A stretch of 38,725 nucleotides of DNA from sequence record PZ502562.2; one strand, given 5' to 3'. Source of the DNA: a phage. Under the pieces are notes generated by a model. It saw only the letters and a list, made by a program, of their open reading frames with translations. It searched no databases and was not told where the DNA came from. Positions 31,501-36,305 of this stretch are shown here, one piece after another (the first letter of the stretch is position 1; every line of letters begins with the position of its first letter). The position numbers and the translations under genes were made by a program.

Positions 31501-32552
31501 TTGGTACTCTTCGTTTCGGTACTCAGGAGTTAGCGGCTCGTTCCCCGTGGACGGTTATGCTAAATGGCACCACTAACTACATCATTGACGCTGCCCGTCA
31601 AGGTGTCCTTGGTGATATTGCAAGTGCGGTATTATCAGGGACTGGTGCTAAGTTTGGTAAGGCAAATTATCTTAAGTCTGCATCAATAAGTCCTGAGCAG
31701 TGGAATGGTATCAAGCAACTATTTCGAGACCACGCCACTCGTGATTCTGGAGGTAAGTTCACAATCAGGGACAAAAGAGCGTTCACCTATGACCCTCGCA
31801 CAATGGACCTGTGGAGACTTGCTGACAAAGTTGCAGGTGAGACAATCATGCGACCGCACAAGATTTCCTCACAGGACTCAGTTGCGTATGGGGCAGGCGT
31901 TAAGATGGTGATGCAGTTTAAGAACTTCGTCATTAAGTCTCTTAACGCCAGATTCGTGCGTAGCTTCTATGAGGCCACAAAGAACAACCGTGCGTTAGAC
32001 CAAGCGTTAACACACATTGTTGCCTGTGGACTAGCTGGTGGCTACTACGTTGGGCAGGCGCATCTAAAGGCCGCTTCCTTACAGGATGACAAACGTAAGG
32101 AGTACCTAAAGATGGCACTAGACCCGAAGATGATTGCCCATGCATCCATCTCTCGTAGCTCACATTTAGGTTCGCCACTTAGCATCTACGATATGATCGC
32201 TGGGGTGTTTGGTGATGACACCTATAAGTACACACGCTCCACGGTACTACCGAAGCAACCAGAAGAACGCGATCGCACAAAAGCGGTCACAGGTCGTCAG
32301 GTTACTGGTATGATTAGTGGTGCTTTAGGCGAGCAGATTCCTGCTTTAGGGTTCGCAGGGCAGGTTGGAGGTACGGCACTTAATGCTGTATCACTACTGA
32401 AAGCGCCCAACAAGGCTACCGAGATGGAGTTCCGTACAGGGATGTTTAATACAATGCGTGAGATTGTTCCGAACGACCCTATCACGCAGCAACTCATTAT
32501 GAAAATTTATGAGGCCAATGGTATCCACATCAAGGAGACACCTAGGAAATAA
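28578..32552 (+). CDS. 16: Internal core protein gp16 with N-terminal lytic transglycosylase domain
   Basis: 1324 aa; N-terminal SLT motif ...VAWTESRFQPTAKSKTGPLGMMQFT...; collinear with T7 gp16. Confidence 0.98.
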   Translation: MDKYDKNVPSEYDGLFQKAADANGVSYDLLRKVAWTESRFQPTAKSKTGPLGMMQFTKATAKAMGLNVTDGPDDDRLVPELSINAAARHLAELVNKFDGDELKAALAYNQGEGRLGAPQLEAYSKGDFSAISDEGRNYMRNLMDVAKSPMAGQLEAFGGITPKGKGIPSDVGLGDIKVEGKRKVTDAIPESTGLDIKGIEQEAPAKSFATDFWDHHKQKPSEYDDRSTFFGFKDAASAEIDNSVLGMAFRAGRLDNSFDVFKDVITPTRWNSTIWTPEELERIRTEVKNPAYLNVVTGGSPENLDDLIRLANENYENDLKKADAGIGAQLSAGIVGAAFDPLSYVPLVGVTGKGFKLINKALVVGAESAAINMASEGLRTSIVGGDANYTGAVLGGLVFGAGMSAISDAITAGLRRSKPEAEFNNEFVGPLMRMEARETAFNANSEDLSKMSTGSINFDREYGGVNYAPLDTEPGAVVLPQGQILSDTNPLNPQTLSEFEAINPERAARGISLGGFTEIGLKTLRSENTGVRSIARDLVRSPTGMESGSNGKFGSTADDIHSRLSSNDNRDWNLYYDKMREVMKDPEFTTGAPKMSKAEAVESIDRKIALAIEHPELQVNLSPKEMDLMRHVKGHYDLKRELMENPAVFGNPKAVSIFPGSRNKGTYIPRVYDTQSKNLYIQRLGSREALQEAIAESSLASYYLRPEVKARIDEHLMEVNGLKSTKEVTHEMVRKYAMDKAYGISHTDQFSSSSIVDENITGLVGIENNNFLEARNLFDTDVPTTLPDGSTFSVDDIRVFSQRILMPAYDRRVNGDIAIIGSSGKTTKELKDEIMVLSKQAEGNGKLKGEVEALKDTVKILTGRARRSPEGALGTALRSLNDMTFFAKNFYMPLQNFTEIAGMLVKGNVSAVTHGIPVINDWVNRSKPMRASEIKELHSMVFGKELDQLIRPSREDHISRLRESTDTNAVLANVVGTLRFGTQELAARSPWTVMLNGTTNYIIDAARQGVLGDIASAVLSGTGAKFGKANYLKSASISPEQWNGIKQLFRDHATRDSGGKFTIRDKRAFTYDPRTMDLWRLADKVAGETIMRPHKISSQDSVAYGAGVKMVMQFKNFVIKSLNARFVRSFYEATKNNRALDQALTHIVACGLAGGYYVGQAHLKAASLQDDKRKEYLKMALDPKMIAHASISRSSHLGSPLSIYDMIAGVFGDDTYKYTRSTVLPKQPEERDRTKAVTGRQVTGMISGALGEQIPALGFAGQVGGTALNAVSLLKAPNKATEMEFRTGMFNTMREIVPNDPITQQLIMKIYEANGIHIKETPRK

Positions 32553-32572
32553 TACGACTCACTATAGGGAGA
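32550..32572 (+). promoter_or_regulatory. T7-RNAP class III promoter phi17
   Basis: TAATACGACTCACTATAGGGAGA, overlapping the gene 16 stop. Confidence 0.9.
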
Positions 32573-32624
32573 GGTGAAAGAATCTTCTCACTGTAGTCTC
32601 TTAGATTTACTTTAAGGAGGTCAA

Positions 32625-34466
32625 ATGGCTAACGTAATTAAAACCGTTTTGACTTACCAGTTAGATGGCTCCACTCATGATTTTAATATCCCGTTTGAGT
32701 ATCTAGCCCGTAAGTTCGTAGTGGTGACTCTTATTGGTGTAGACCGTAAGGTCCTTACGCTTAATACAGACTATCGCTTTGCTACACGTACTACCATCTC
32801 ACTGACTAAGGCTTGGGGTCCATCCGATGGCTACACGACCATCGAGTTACGCCGAGTAACCTCCACGACCGACCGCTTGGTTGACTTTACGGACGGCTCA
32901 ATCCTCCGTGCGTATGACCTTAACGTTGCTCAGATTCAAACGATGCACGTAGCGGAGGAGGCGCGCGACCTGACTGCTGATACAATCGGTGTCAATAATG
33001 ACGGTCACTTGGATGCCCGTGGTCGGCGTGTAGTGAACGTTGGTAATGCGGTAGACCGCGGGGATGCGGTTAACTTGGGGATGCTTCAAGATTGGGACAA
33101 CTCCGCCCTGAATCAAGCAGACCGTTCGGAGAAGGAGGCTGATAGGGCAGAGGCCGCTGCGTCCCAAGCTGACAGTAGCGCTGCTAAGGCTCTTTCTTCT
33201 GAGAAAAGTGCTTCCACAAGTGCTACTAACGCACTCGCTTCGGAGAATGCAGCAAAGGCATCACAAGTGGCTGCGGCTGGTAGCGCAAGTTCGTCAGAAC
33301 AATCTAAGAACGAGGCAAATGCCTACAAAGAGGCCGCGCAAACTGCCGCGGACACCGCGTCCAACCATGAGGATAAAGCCAAGGAGTACATGGAGAGGGC
33401 CGAGGCTGTCGCCTGCTCCAAGGAGAATCCGGTATCTGAGATAACGTTCACTACTGGTGGGTCATTAGGTTCTGAAAGGGCCAAGGTCCGGGACACAGTT
33501 ACCAACCGCATCTACTACTGGATTGGGACCTTCCCCAAGGTAATACCTGAAAACTCCGTAGGAGAAGACCTTATAAAGGCAGATGGTGACCTGTGGGATT
33601 CTCTGCAAAACCCTAACGGTAAGTGGGTAGACGCGGGTAACAGCGTCCCTGCACTAAGAACCACATTAGGAGAAGGAGTACCCTTCAAGTACGAGACGTA
33701 CCCGAAGGATAACCTCAACGCCATTACTGAGCGTCAATCCAATAGGGTGCGTGTGGCTACGTGGAACATTTGGGGAGCAGGTGCTCAAGGTAACTTTGGT
33801 TCACTGGGTTCTGCCGATAGGATAAAGGCCCTACAGGAGCGATGGCTCAACCAAAAGCTAGACTACGTAGGTCTACAGGAGTGCTATTTCAACGACACAT
33901 TCTACCCATTCTCCATGTATACAATAGGTTCTCTCCACACTGCATTCGTACAGACGTGCGAACCTTATGAGTCTGGAATAACCATCCTGGATTTCGACTA
34001 CGGTACGGGATGTGTAAGCAGTGGCGCTGACGTGAAGATGTCTGGAGGAATCTATAAGGACAGCATCGGAAGCTCAGTGGATAAGGAGCGCCGAGCGTGG
34101 ACTCGCACAGAGACTACCATTAGGGGCCGTAAGTACGTAATATACAATACACATCTCAGCTATGATAGGGCGCGATTCACTCAGCAGCAGTCAGAGTTGA
34201 ACAACCTCCTATTAGCAGAGACTAACCCACAAGTAATCGTAATGGGAGATTTCAACCACGACGACATCACGTTGTTTCAGCCATTACTTGATGCCGGATG
34301 GTCTATGGGCCAGAACAAAGAGTTTAATACTAACAACACCGGCGGAAAATGGCACATTGATAATATACTGTACAAAGGGTTCTCTAAGAGAGTTGATAGA
34401 GGAACTCAGGACGCACCAAGTTCTCTATCTGACCATAAATTATTCTATGTGGAACTGGAGGTATAA
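32625..34466 (+). CDS. 17: Chimeric tail fibre: T7-like tail-attachment N-terminus, Ala/Ser-rich shaft, C-terminal EEP (endonuclease/exonuclease/phosphatase)-fold domain
   Basis: 613 aa. Residues 1 to about 150 match T7 gp17; the rest is unrelated to the T7 shaft and tip. C-terminal motifs in EEP order: VATWNIWG, DYVGLQECY, VIYNTHLSYD, VIVMGDFNHDD, SDHKLFYVE. Confidence 0.9.
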   Translation: MANVIKTVLTYQLDGSTHDFNIPFEYLARKFVVVTLIGVDRKVLTLNTDYRFATRTTISLTKAWGPSDGYTTIELRRVTSTTDRLVDFTDGSILRAYDLNVAQIQTMHVAEEARDLTADTIGVNNDGHLDARGRRVVNVGNAVDRGDAVNLGMLQDWDNSALNQADRSEKEADRAEAAASQADSSAAKALSSEKSASTSATNALASENAAKASQVAAAGSASSSEQSKNEANAYKEAAQTAADTASNHEDKAKEYMERAEAVACSKENPVSEITFTTGGSLGSERAKVRDTVTNRIYYWIGTFPKVIPENSVGEDLIKADGDLWDSLQNPNGKWVDAGNSVPALRTTLGEGVPFKYETYPKDNLNAITERQSNRVRVATWNIWGAGAQGNFGSLGSADRIKALQERWLNQKLDYVGLQECYFNDTFYPFSMYTIGSLHTAFVQTCEPYESGITILDFDYGTGCVSSGADVKMSGGIYKDSIGSSVDKERRAWTRTETTIRGRKYVIYNTHLSYDRARFTQQQSELNNLLLAETNPQVIVMGDFNHDDITLFQPLLDAGWSMGQNKEFNTNNTGGKWHIDNILYKGFSKRVDRGTQDAPSSLSDHKLFYVELEV

Positions 34467-34467
34467 C

Positions 34468-35277
34468 ATGACCAACAAACTACTAGTAAACACTGAGGTA
34501 GCTCTCGCGGATGGGGACGCTCTATCCCTAGAGATGGTTCGTATGCGAAACGAACTGACAATCGCTAAGGCGGTTCAGGGTGAGACCCATTTCTACAAGA
34601 GTGTTAAGGATATGGGCATTACCGGGAAGGTTACGCTACTCTCCATTGCGAAGAGGATGCGCCGACGCTCTGTCCTCATCGTGAGTGTGTACGGAGGGAC
34701 CAGTGATGGTCCTGACCTTCCGCTCCCTTACTTCAACTCAGGGACTCCTGTTTATATGTCCGGCATACTTTGGGCGTACAAGATGGAGGATGAGAAAAAA
34801 GTCTATTTCGAGTGGCGTAACGAGAACATGACTGCCCGGTGTAACTATAACGCACACGTTGAGGACAAGGTTACTCCGTGGGTGTTCGATATGCTACCTA
34901 AGATGAATGCTACGGCTGGTCCGGGATACTGGCAGAACAGGATGTCAAATATTTGGGTTCCGGGGACGTATTACTTCACTAGAGACCAGATGAACGGCTT
35001 CACCGATAGACCTGTACTTGGAGGGGGCTACTTGGAGGTAATGAATGCAGGTAACTCACCTACTTCTGACAGAAACTATGTATTCACCTTAAACACTTCG
35101 GACCAACACAAGTGGTCCCGTCAAAATGATGGGGATTGGAGAATCATCCCTGTGTGCTTCACCGCAGCCGTACATGACAGCCAGATGCGCGTGGGTGATA
35201 TGAAAGTGGCAAGCAATGGTATGCTCCATATCAGAGTAAGCTCCAGTAAAGTGGGCCAGATTGCCACCGTTGGATAA
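34468..35277 (+). CDS. Hypothetical 269-aa protein downstream of the tail fibre; no counterpart in T7
   Basis: ATG 34468 lies 1 nt after the gene 17 TAA, with RBS GGAGG at 34457-34461. The ORF track shows a longer version from 34288 overlapping gene 17. Aromatic/Asn/Gly-rich, no signal peptide, no recognisable catalytic motif. Confidence 0.75.
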   Translation: MTNKLLVNTEVALADGDALSLEMVRMRNELTIAKAVQGETHFYKSVKDMGITGKVTLLSIAKRMRRRSVLIVSVYGGTSDGPDLPLPYFNSGTPVYMSGILWAYKMEDEKKVYFEWRNENMTARCNYNAHVEDKVTPWVFDMLPKMNATAGPGYWQNRMSNIWVPGTYYFTRDQMNGFTDRPVLGGGYLEVMNAGNSPTSDRNYVFTLNTSDQHKWSRQNDGDWRIIPVCFTAAVHDSQMRVGDMKVASNGMLHIRVSSSKVGQIATVG

Positions 35278-35290
35278 ATCAGGAGGTATC

Positions 35291-35494
35291 ATGTTATCCT
35301 TGGATTTTAATAATGAAGTCATCAAGGCTGCCCCCATTGCGGGGGCCGTTGGTGCTGACGCCACGTCTAGACTCATTTGGGGACTCTCCCTGAACGAGTG
35401 GTTCTACATTGCCGCTATCGCCTACACAGTGGTTCAGATTGGTGCCAAGGTAGTCGATAAGATGATTGACTGGAAGAAAGCCAATAAGGAGTAA
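35291..35494 (+). CDS. 17.5: Class II holin
   Basis: 67 aa from ATG 35291 with RBS AGGAGG (MLSLDFNNEVIKAAPIAGAVGADATSRLIWGLSLNEWFYIAAIAYTVVQIGAKVVDKMIDWKKANKE); one hydrophobic segment. Confidence 0.92.
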   Translation: MLSLDFNNEVIKAAPIAGAVGADATSRLIWGLSLNEWFYIAAIAYTVVQIGAKVVDKMIDWKKANKE

Positions 35495-35497
35495 TAT

Positions 35498-35767
35498 ATG
35501 GAAAAAGATAAGAGCCTCATTACGTTCTTAGAGATGTTGGACACTGCGATGGCTCAGCGTATGCTTGCGGACCTTTCGGACCCTGAGCGCCGTTCTCCGC
35601 AACTATACAACGCCATCAACAAACTGTTAGACCGCCACAAGTTCCAGATTGGTAAGTTGCAGCCGGATGTTCACATCTTGGGTGGCCTTGCTGGTGCTCT
35701 TGAAGAGTACAAAGAGAAAGTCGGAGATAACGGTCTTACTGATGACGATATTTACACTTTACAGTGA
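35498..35767 (+). CDS. 18: Terminase small subunit (DNA maturation protein A)
   Basis: 89 aa, collinear with T7 gp18. Confidence 0.95.
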   Translation: MEKDKSLITFLEMLDTAMAQRMLADLSDPERRSPQLYNAINKLLDRHKFQIGKLQPDVHILGGLAGALEEYKEKVGDNGLTDDDIYTLQ

Positions 35768-35812
35768 TATACTCAAGGCCACTACATATAGTGGTCTTTA
35801 TGGATGTCATTG
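35766..35812 (+). promoter_or_regulatory. Putative RNase III site (R18.5-like)
   Basis: GATATACTCAAGGCCACTACATATAGTGGTCTTTATGGATG hairpin. Confidence 0.45.
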
Positions 35813-35861
35813 TCTACACGAGATGCTCCTACGTGAAATCTGAAAGTTAACGGGAGGCATT

Positions 35862-36305
35862 ATGCTGGAATTTTTACGTAAGCTGGTACCTTGGGTTCTC
35901 GCTGGGATGCTATTCGGATGGGGATGGCAACTTGGGGCGGACTCAATGGACGCCAAGTGGAAACAGGAGGTACAGAATGAGTACGTTAAGAGAGTTGAGG
36001 CTACAGCGAGCACTCAAAGAGCACTCAATGAAATATCGGCTAAGTATCAAGAAGACCTTGCCGCGCTGGAAGGGAGCACTGATAGGATTATTTCTGATTT
36101 GCGTAGCGACAATAAGCGGCTGCACGTCAGAGTCAAAACTACCGGAACCTCCGATGGTAAGTGTGGATTCGAGCCTGATGGTAGAGCCGAACTTGACGAG
36201 CGAGATGCTAAAAGTATTCTCGCAGTGACCCAAAGAGGTGACGCGTGGATTCGCGCTCTACAGGATACCATACGCGAGCTACAGCATAAGCAGGAGGTTA
36301 AGTAA
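35862..36305 (+). CDS. 18.5: i-spanin (Rz-like)
   Basis: 147 aa, N-terminal TM segment [15 protein letters not shown], collinear with T7 gp18.5. Confidence 0.93.
35977..36228 (+). CDS. 18.7: o-spanin (Rz1-like lipoprotein) embedded in the +1 frame of gene 18.5
   Basis: 83 aa from ATG 35977 ([71 protein letters not shown]...); lipobox [10 protein letters not shown]. Confidence 0.85.
   Translation: MSTLRELRLQRALKEHSMKYRLSIKKTLPRWKGALIGLFLICVATISGCTSESKLPEPPMVSVDSSLMVEPNLTSEMLKVFSQ

Follow-up and report, generated by a model that had tools for sequence, protein, structure and literature searches.

The window analysed here is a stretch of 38,725 nucleotides (nt) from a phage (sequence record PZ502562.2, one strand), representing the genome of a T7-like, Teseptimavirus-like phage, and the subject of this report is its tail-fibre gene, gene 17 (32625-34466, plus strand; product gp17, 613 amino acids, hereafter aa). 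Position 33026, inside this gene, very probably marks the 5' edge of a host-range cassette of 2.25 kb that spans about 33026-35280 and has been exchanged in this T7-like phage. The cassette replaces gene 17 beyond codon 134 and adds a second gene before the holin gene. According to the proposed mechanism, it moves among T7-like genomes by homologous recombination during co-infection, with one crossover in the highly conserved gene 17 DNA that encodes the N-terminal domain (N-domain) and the other either within the conserved genes 17.5 and 18 or shortly before them. The fibre that results keeps the tail-plugging N-domain and a proximal shaft of T7 length, and its distal half consists of a neck and a phosphoesterase domain of the endonuclease/exonuclease/phosphatase (EEP) fold; a translationally coupled 269-aa partner of the gp17.01 family, having a receptor-binding-protein-like fold, accompanies it. 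What proves the cassette model is the break in homology together with a block that is 99.4% identical in a second phage; the shift in codon usage fits it. The case is one of modular tail-fibre exchange, which is well known, and its particular form is an EEP plus gp17.01 module of the type found in Citrobacter rodentium phages CR8 and CR44b, joined here to a shaft of T7 type in a Teseptimavirus backbone.

Junctions and the recently exchanged block

The left recombination arm is the virion-anchoring N-domain, codons 1-134 (32625-33025, plus strand), in which 129 of 134 residues are identical to T7 (96%) and 132 of 134 to phage IME390. At the nucleotide level these codons are 98-99% identical to IME390, well above the ~91% of the backbone, and the arm is itself a patch of recent sharing. 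The identity to IME390 is still 99% over codons 76-134, whereas it is 49% over codons 135-149. BLAST alignments end at 33025 for Escherichia phage EG1, Cedecea phage Yanou, IME390 and SYGE1 and extend further for T3 (to 33028) and T7 (to 33071), and in the multiple alignment the last shared base, 33025, is the 3' end of a 23-nt block (33003-33025) that is near-invariant in all seven phages. This end of nucleotide homology to all close relatives (33025-33027, plus strand; junction J1) places the crossover at codon 134/135 (33025/33026), within N-domain coding DNA.

A previous interpretation made from the letters of the window without database searches, hereafter the sequence-only reading, had placed a mosaic junction at 33040-33120 and regarded it as a recombination at a conserved hinge near residue 150, up to which gp17 was thought to follow T7. 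A mosaic break is indeed present, and the crossover does fall in conserved DNA, but the true break lies 14 nt upstream and inside the N-domain coding DNA rather than at the proposed boundary. The likeness to T7 likewise holds to codon 134 and fails for residues 135-165 (33027-33119, plus strand), where only 12 of 31 residues are identical to T7 and beyond which identity stays at background level; the nucleotide identity to T7 falls to 64% and then to 33%. This segment represents the terminal part of a T7-type N-domain in the diverged form carried by the donor and is still within the match to Pfam PF03906 (Phage_T7_tail), which covers residues 1-155 with E=6.2e-66, indicating that the N-terminal tail-attachment domain is present. 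Because 33040-33120 encodes the donor's own diverged N-domain end, the donor also had a T7-type fibre.

At the other end of the cassette, T7-like homology resumes at 35275-35291 (plus strand), between the stop of the second gene, open reading frame 2 (ORF2), and the start of the holin gene: BLAST alignments restart at 35275 for Yanou, at 35281 for T7 and T3, and at 35290-35291 for EG1, IME390 and SYGE1. The right recombination arm is this holin gene, gene 17.5 (35291-35494, plus strand; Pfam Phage_holin_2_2, E=1e-31). Nucleotide homology is therefore lost abruptly and then regained around the cassette, with conserved arms on either side, and the reading frames are open across both junctions. 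When 33075-35277 was compared by blastn with 50,697 phage records, nothing matched it at the nucleotide level; the cassette is foreign. Near the right junction, an inverted repeat, GTCCACGGATGGAC, is common to T7, T3, EG1, IME390, Yanou and SYGE1 between genes 17 and 17.5 (at ~2815-2835 of the T7 sequence L005, compared with 35255-35290 of the window); the window retains only a degenerate form, CCACCGTTGGA, inside the last codons of ORF2.

The most direct evidence for a recent transfer comes from a sister contig, L016 (Logan SRR18693185, 39.2 kb), which was obtained from another sequencing run and sample. Its gp17 is 99% identical to that of the window phage, and a block at 32850-36040 of the window (plus strand; approximately 10226-13416 of L016) differs at 18 of 3191 nt and is thus 99.4% identical, although the flanks are only 91.1% and 90.1% identical and the L016 backbone as a whole is ~90-91% identical to the window. 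Included in the block are ~175 nt of N-domain DNA, the complete cassette, the holin gene and gene 18 as well as the 5' end of gene 18.5, and its ends fall in the conserved flanking DNA. This comparison of sequences shows a recent homologous exchange of the cassette between the window phage and a sister lineage, and the outline of the block is the footprint expected of homologous recombination between co-infecting T7-like phages.

Within the cassette, the architecture of gp17 points to a further boundary. Downstream of the N-domain, residues ~166-262 (33120-33410, plus strand) are rich in Ala, Ser, Glu and Lys and collinear with the T7 shaft; they are a T7-type proximal shaft of conserved length (~100 residues), which may form a coiled coil by analogy with T7. 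By BLASTP, window residues 1-260 align collinearly with T7 residues 1-267, where the similarity stops; profiles of T7-type fibres in PHROG likewise align to residues 1-261/267, and the CR44b-type profile phrog_31166 covers residues 224-613. Because the T7-type profiles and BLASTP alignments stop at 260-267 and the CR44b-type profile extends over 224-613, the T7 distal half-fibre has been replaced near residues 262-270. This approximate fusion point, at which the neck and EEP module joins the T7-type shaft (33410-33435, plus strand; junction J2), located also by the homology to CR44b and corresponding to T7 residue ~268, is a second, older junction at the domain level. The beta neck, residues 270-311 (33432-33557, plus strand), shows a weak Tail_spike_N-like match to Pfam PF18668, whose E-value of 0.0019 does not reach the cut-off; a Tail_spike_N-type domain is also annotated in homologues P0002-P0007 and in the gp17 proteins of L010 and L014. 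The T7-type distal half-fibre, consisting of pyramid and tip domains, is not present in window gp17, and the EEP domain stands in its place.

Codon usage and alternative explanations

The sequence-only reading had called attention to the codons themselves, and this part of it was borne out. In gp17, codons 1-150 contain 13 CGN, no AGA or AGG (AGR) and no ATA codons, and the 11 Arg codons among codons 1-134 are all CGN, whereas codons 151-613 contain 11 CGN, 10 AGR and 8 ATA (Fisher p=0.005); no AGR codon occurs before codon 174, at 33144. In distal gp17 and ORF2 together (33075-35274), there are 20 CGN and 17 AGR among 37 Arg codons against 533 and 72 in all other genes (p=9.7e-7), and for Ile the choice is ATA in 9 of 29 cases here but in 50 of 607 elsewhere (p=6e-4); GGA is likewise enriched. 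The AGR fraction of the cassette, 0.46, exceeds that of background stretches of 732 codons, which reach 0.35 at most. The three strings that had been quoted as examples are present at 34119, 34392 and 34978. The tRNA gene that might compensate for the AGR codons was looked for in the window and none was found.

Several results weigh against reading these features as the mark of one particular acquisition. The shift concerns Arg and Ile codons as had been supposed but does not extend to the GC content at third codon positions (GC3), which is 0.51 in one part and 0.53-0.57 in the other, so that neither GC content nor GC3 marks a transfer. By whole-gene deviance of synonymous codon usage, the cassette does not stand out (G=100 over 709 codons, compared with 115 over 334 in the capsid gene), and it is mainly the Arg, Ile and Gly codons that carry the signal. 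Furthermore, the contrast is found in the family as a whole. The N-domain has no AGR codons among 14 Arg codons in T7 and in T3, 12 in EG1 and in IME390, and 13 in the window phage, and distal gp17 has 4 of 20 (T7), 8 of 21 (T3), 11 of 40 (EG1), 11 of 36 (IME390) and 10 of 21 (window), which puts the window phage at the high end of the T7-like range; Yanou and SYGE1 show the same contrast. As it is family-wide, it is weak evidence for this acquisition. In CR44b and CR8, AGR codons are nearly absent from the homologous EEP parts, and codon usage alone therefore neither dates nor proves the acquisition; gp17.01 genes of the CrRp3 type (C. rodentium podophage CrRp3) are AGR-rich with low GC3. No close donor was found: the best relatives other than the sister protein have 40-52% protein identity. 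Concerning the origin of the shaft, tblastn matched only its first 30 residues, i.e., the N-domain end, and a search with residues 135-300 against a collection of 5.8 billion proteins gave no match, not even to the sister protein, probably because the query is compositionally biased, which leaves this negative uninformative. A scan of genome contigs with the EEP alignment gave no prophage donors, and only three weak, unrelated EEP matches (Enterococcus, and metagenome-assembled genomes of Anaerolineales and Phycisphaerae).

It is a real possibility, although we would not call it probable, that selection differs between the two parts of gene 17 and that the codon shift stems from this and not from foreign origin: the N-domain would be ancient, strongly conserved and codon-optimised, and the distal fibre, evolving fast under diversifying selection, would tolerate the rare AGR and ATA codons, so that the codons could be explained with no recent transfer. 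The AGR-free N-domains and AGR-containing distal parts of T7, T3, EG1, IME390, Yanou and SYGE1 are in favour of this explanation, as are the uniform GC3 and the modest overall codon deviance. Gene 18.5 (Rz-like spanin, 35862-36305) speaks for it also, having AGR at 6 of 12 Arg codons (50%) in both the window phage and CR44b, and 3 of 7 in CR8; the Rz1 (o-spanin) frame embedded in this gene probably constrains its AGR content, and the gene makes clear that AGR richness by itself is no sign of foreign origin. Such selection would explain the codons, but not the abrupt break from 99% to 49% nucleotide identity, and it leaves unexplained the EEP fold, the extra gene and the 99.4% block on a ~90% backbone; it is compatible with the cassette model and is no replacement for it. 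We consider that the AGR/ATA enrichment is a real yet generic compositional mark of exchangeable distal fibre modules, which probably stems from a separate evolutionary pool of such modules or from weaker codon selection.

Two further explanations dispense with exchange between phages. Divergence of the distal fibre in place, by rapid mutation without recombination, might be suggested by the finding that residues 135-260 are still collinear with the T7 shaft and of equal length, but we regard it as very improbable: the identity changes within 3 nt, T7 has neither an EEP domain nor gene 17.01, and homologues of the EEP and gp17.01 proteins occur on P22-type head-binding and TSP1-type N-termini and in Ackermannviridae. 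A junction created by chimeric assembly of two phages is more improbable still. It is a general risk with metagenomic contigs, and nothing further speaks for it, whereas the independent contig L016 has the same junction and the same intact open reading frames on a ~10% different backbone, and the frames stay open across both junctions. Acquisition of the cassette by recombination is the explanation we retain. The sequence-only reading, which had proposed a horizontally acquired distal-fibre cassette including the extra open reading frame, is supported in this respect on grounds independent of codons, i.e., the homology break, the occurrence of module homologues elsewhere and the shared block.

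The EEP domain and its gp17.01-family partner

The main cargo of the cassette is the EEP domain, residues 378-604 of gp17 (33756-34436, plus strand). It matches Exo_endo_phos (PF03372) at 47.3 bits against a cut-off of 24.5, over profile positions 1-225 of 225. Eight residues, N381, E419, H510, D542, N544, D579, D603 and H604, are invariant in 12 homologues, and comparison with DNase I, APE1 and sphingomyelinase suggests that they make up the full complement of catalytic and metal-binding residues of an EEP enzyme; the set is intact in the window phage. In the AlphaFold2 model (AF2), the mean predicted local distance difference test scores (pLDDT) of blocks within the domain are mostly ~80-96, and 61-68 in three 10-residue blocks. 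Foldseek matches this model to EEP structures at E ~1e-13, with template modelling (TM) scores of up to 0.7 on the target, the fold being a four-layer alpha/beta sandwich, and a profile search of solved structures retrieved EEP proteins, sphingomyelinase C and beta-hemolysin. Matches to beta-helix tailspike depolymerases (right-handed parallel beta-helix) were absent, the model being an EEP sandwich, and only the short N-terminal neck resembles the N-termini of tailspikes. The domain may be an active phosphodiesterase acting on a cell-surface phospho-glycan.

Homology to CR44b gp17 begins at residue 297 (41% identity over 319 aa, E=2e-80), and the neck and EEP part from there on is likewise 41% identical to CR8 gp17. 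Identities of 30-48% relate this part to proteins from CrRp3, Cronobacter phage B1, Proteus phage PM 116, the Escherichia phages BEK2, BEK3 and W22, and Ackermannviridae phages of Salmonella, and Morganella and Proteus proteins with Tail_spike_N or P22-type Head_binding N-termini are similarly related.

ORF2 (34468-35277, plus strand, 269 aa) is homologous to CR44b gp17.01 (43% identity, E=8e-73) and encodes a putative small virion protein of the receptor-binding type. A GGAGGT Shine-Dalgarno sequence precedes its ATG at 34468, which lies 1 nt past the stop of gp17. A 329-aa open reading frame starting from TTG at 34288, which overlaps the end of gene 17, was rejected as an artefact of ORF calling, since both the homologue alignment and the Shine-Dalgarno sequence place the start at ATG 34468. 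The records of CR8 and CR44b state that gp17.01 was matched by mass spectrometry of virions, and this protein has been described as a putative tailspike with a predicted PRD1 P2-like fold (Toribio et al., 2014; PMC4038870). The family is rare: a word-indexed search of the aforementioned 5.8 billion proteins yielded nine clusters, and a profile search of 1.84 billion representatives yielded 76 matches. Distant relatives of ORF2 are segments of long fibre proteins with Phage_RBD_prop, Peptidase_S74 or Gp53-like_C domains. The ORF2 model is of moderate confidence (pLDDT 75, predicted TM score 0.57), and its best structural match is Gp45 of the staphylococcal phage phi11, which binds wall teichoic acid. 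The gp17.01 protein may be a virion-borne receptor-binding partner of the fibre.

Protein homologues of the EEP part and of ORF2 are encoded side by side in backbones unrelated to that of the window (CR8/CR44b, CrRp3 and the Ackermannviridae phage Se-J). In every context examined, i.e., T7-like contigs, CrRp3-type (SP6/K1-5-like) genomes and Se-J, the gp17.01 homologue lies directly downstream of the EEP gene with abutting stop and start. In CrRp3 (L017, 4126-5825) and in L009 (3135-4834), the EEP protein has only 289 aa and no recognisable anchor, and the gp17.01 homologue overlaps its gene by 4 nt; the retention of the pair even with this anchorless protein suggests that the two proteins work as a complex. 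In the 160-kb Salmonella phage of the Se-J type (L020, 3602-5681), a 423-aa EEP tailspike-like gene is followed after 1 nt by a gene for a 268-aa gp17.01 homologue (36% identity), and the gene layout of the window is thus seen in an unrelated myovirus.

Tentatively, and with more doubt than confidence, we propose that EEP fibres are a new class of enzymatic depolymerase, namely phosphodiesterases that would cut sugar-phosphate-sugar bridges in teichoic-acid-like O-antigens, with gp17.01 as the glycopolymer-binding partner. The EEP and gp17.01 pair is present in all three C. rodentium podophages found here (CR8, CR44b and the unrelated CrRp3). The O-antigen of C. rodentium is O152-like (PMC12501221), and O152 is among only 6 of 182 Escherichia coli O-serogroups that have phosphodiester-bridged repeat units (PMC9912281). 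The structural match of ORF2 to phi11 Gp45 is a further lead. On these grounds, an O-antigen phosphodiesterase depolymerase becomes a testable hypothesis. The phages BEK2 and BEK3 stand against this idea, at least against a strict link to O-antigen, since they have an EEP fibre and yet were isolated on E. coli K514, a K-12 strain without O-antigen. In the literature, we found no paper on EEP-domain or phosphodiesterase tail fibres. If the proposal is true, the window phage would target a host with a phosphodiester-bridged O-antigen, a fourth chemistry would be added to the glycosidases, lyases and esterases among phage depolymerases, and host range would become predictable from O-antigen chemistry.

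The junction itself is a textbook route of host-range change in T7-like phages, and for the engineering of fibres it supplies exact splice points that nature has already validated, namely codon 134/135, residues ~262-270 and the region immediately before gene 17.5. Of greater importance than the junction is the cargo, an uncharacterised EEP fibre tip whose catalytic set is intact and which is paired with a small obligate partner protein; the pair occurs across three phage groups.

Genomic setting and comparison with known systems

The backbone of the window is ~92% identical at the nucleotide level to EG1 over 24.6 kb and ~91-92% identical to Yanou over the same length, both of which are Teseptimavirus phages, and only ~91% identical to IME390. 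Upstream of gene 17, a perfect class III promoter of T7 type, phi17 (TAATACGACTCACTATAGGGAGA; 32551-32573, plus strand), was read directly from the sequence. The 3' part of gene 16 (32172-32459) aligns continuously with EG1 and Yanou (~92%), and the BLAST alignments of T7, T3, IME390 and SYGE1 are interrupted between 32171 and 32460; this is another mosaic boundary, just upstream of gene 17. The label "phosphoesterase" in SYGE1 was examined and discarded, as it belongs to gene 16 of that phage and not to a fibre.

Gene 17 of the window lies between genes 16 and 17.5 behind the phi17 promoter, as in T7, where this promoter has the same relative position. The gp17 proteins of T7 and T3 thus correspond to that of the window in gene position, promoter and N-domain, and in a collinear shaft of T7 length. 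The window phage also follows the pattern of C-terminal exchange common in T7-like phages, with a conserved N-terminus, a swapped distal part and a return of homology at gene 17.5. The difference is that T7 residues ~268-553, forming the pyramid and tip, are replaced in the window by the neck and EEP domain, after which comes the extra gene; T7 is without both the EEP domain and gene 17.01.

The closest counterpart in gene content is found in the C. rodentium phages CR8 and CR44b, which have gene 17 and gene 17.01 in the same order and with the same abutting stop and start. However, their gp17 proteins are 485-486 aa long, with an N-domain only ~35% identical and a short linker leading straight to the neck, whereas the 613-aa protein of the window has the full T7-type N-domain and a shaft of ~100 residues. 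The EEP tailspike-like proteins of Morganella and Proteus carry the same module on other anchors (Tail_spike_N or P22 Head_binding), and CrRp3 and Se-J have the EEP module followed by a gp17.01 homologue as in the window, although their anchoring domains differ. Among EEP phosphodiesterases, bacterial sphingomyelinase C/beta-hemolysin, TDP2 and CNOT6L share with the EEP domain of the window the fold and the catalytic Asn-Glu-His-Asp-Asn-Asp-Asp-His constellation, but they are only 14-20% identical to it, and the window domain is fused to a phage fibre. For ORF2, the counterparts are the receptor-binding proteins of the staphylococcal phages phi11 (Gp45) and phi812 and the R2 pyocin fibre, which resemble it in partial matches at 12-15% identity.

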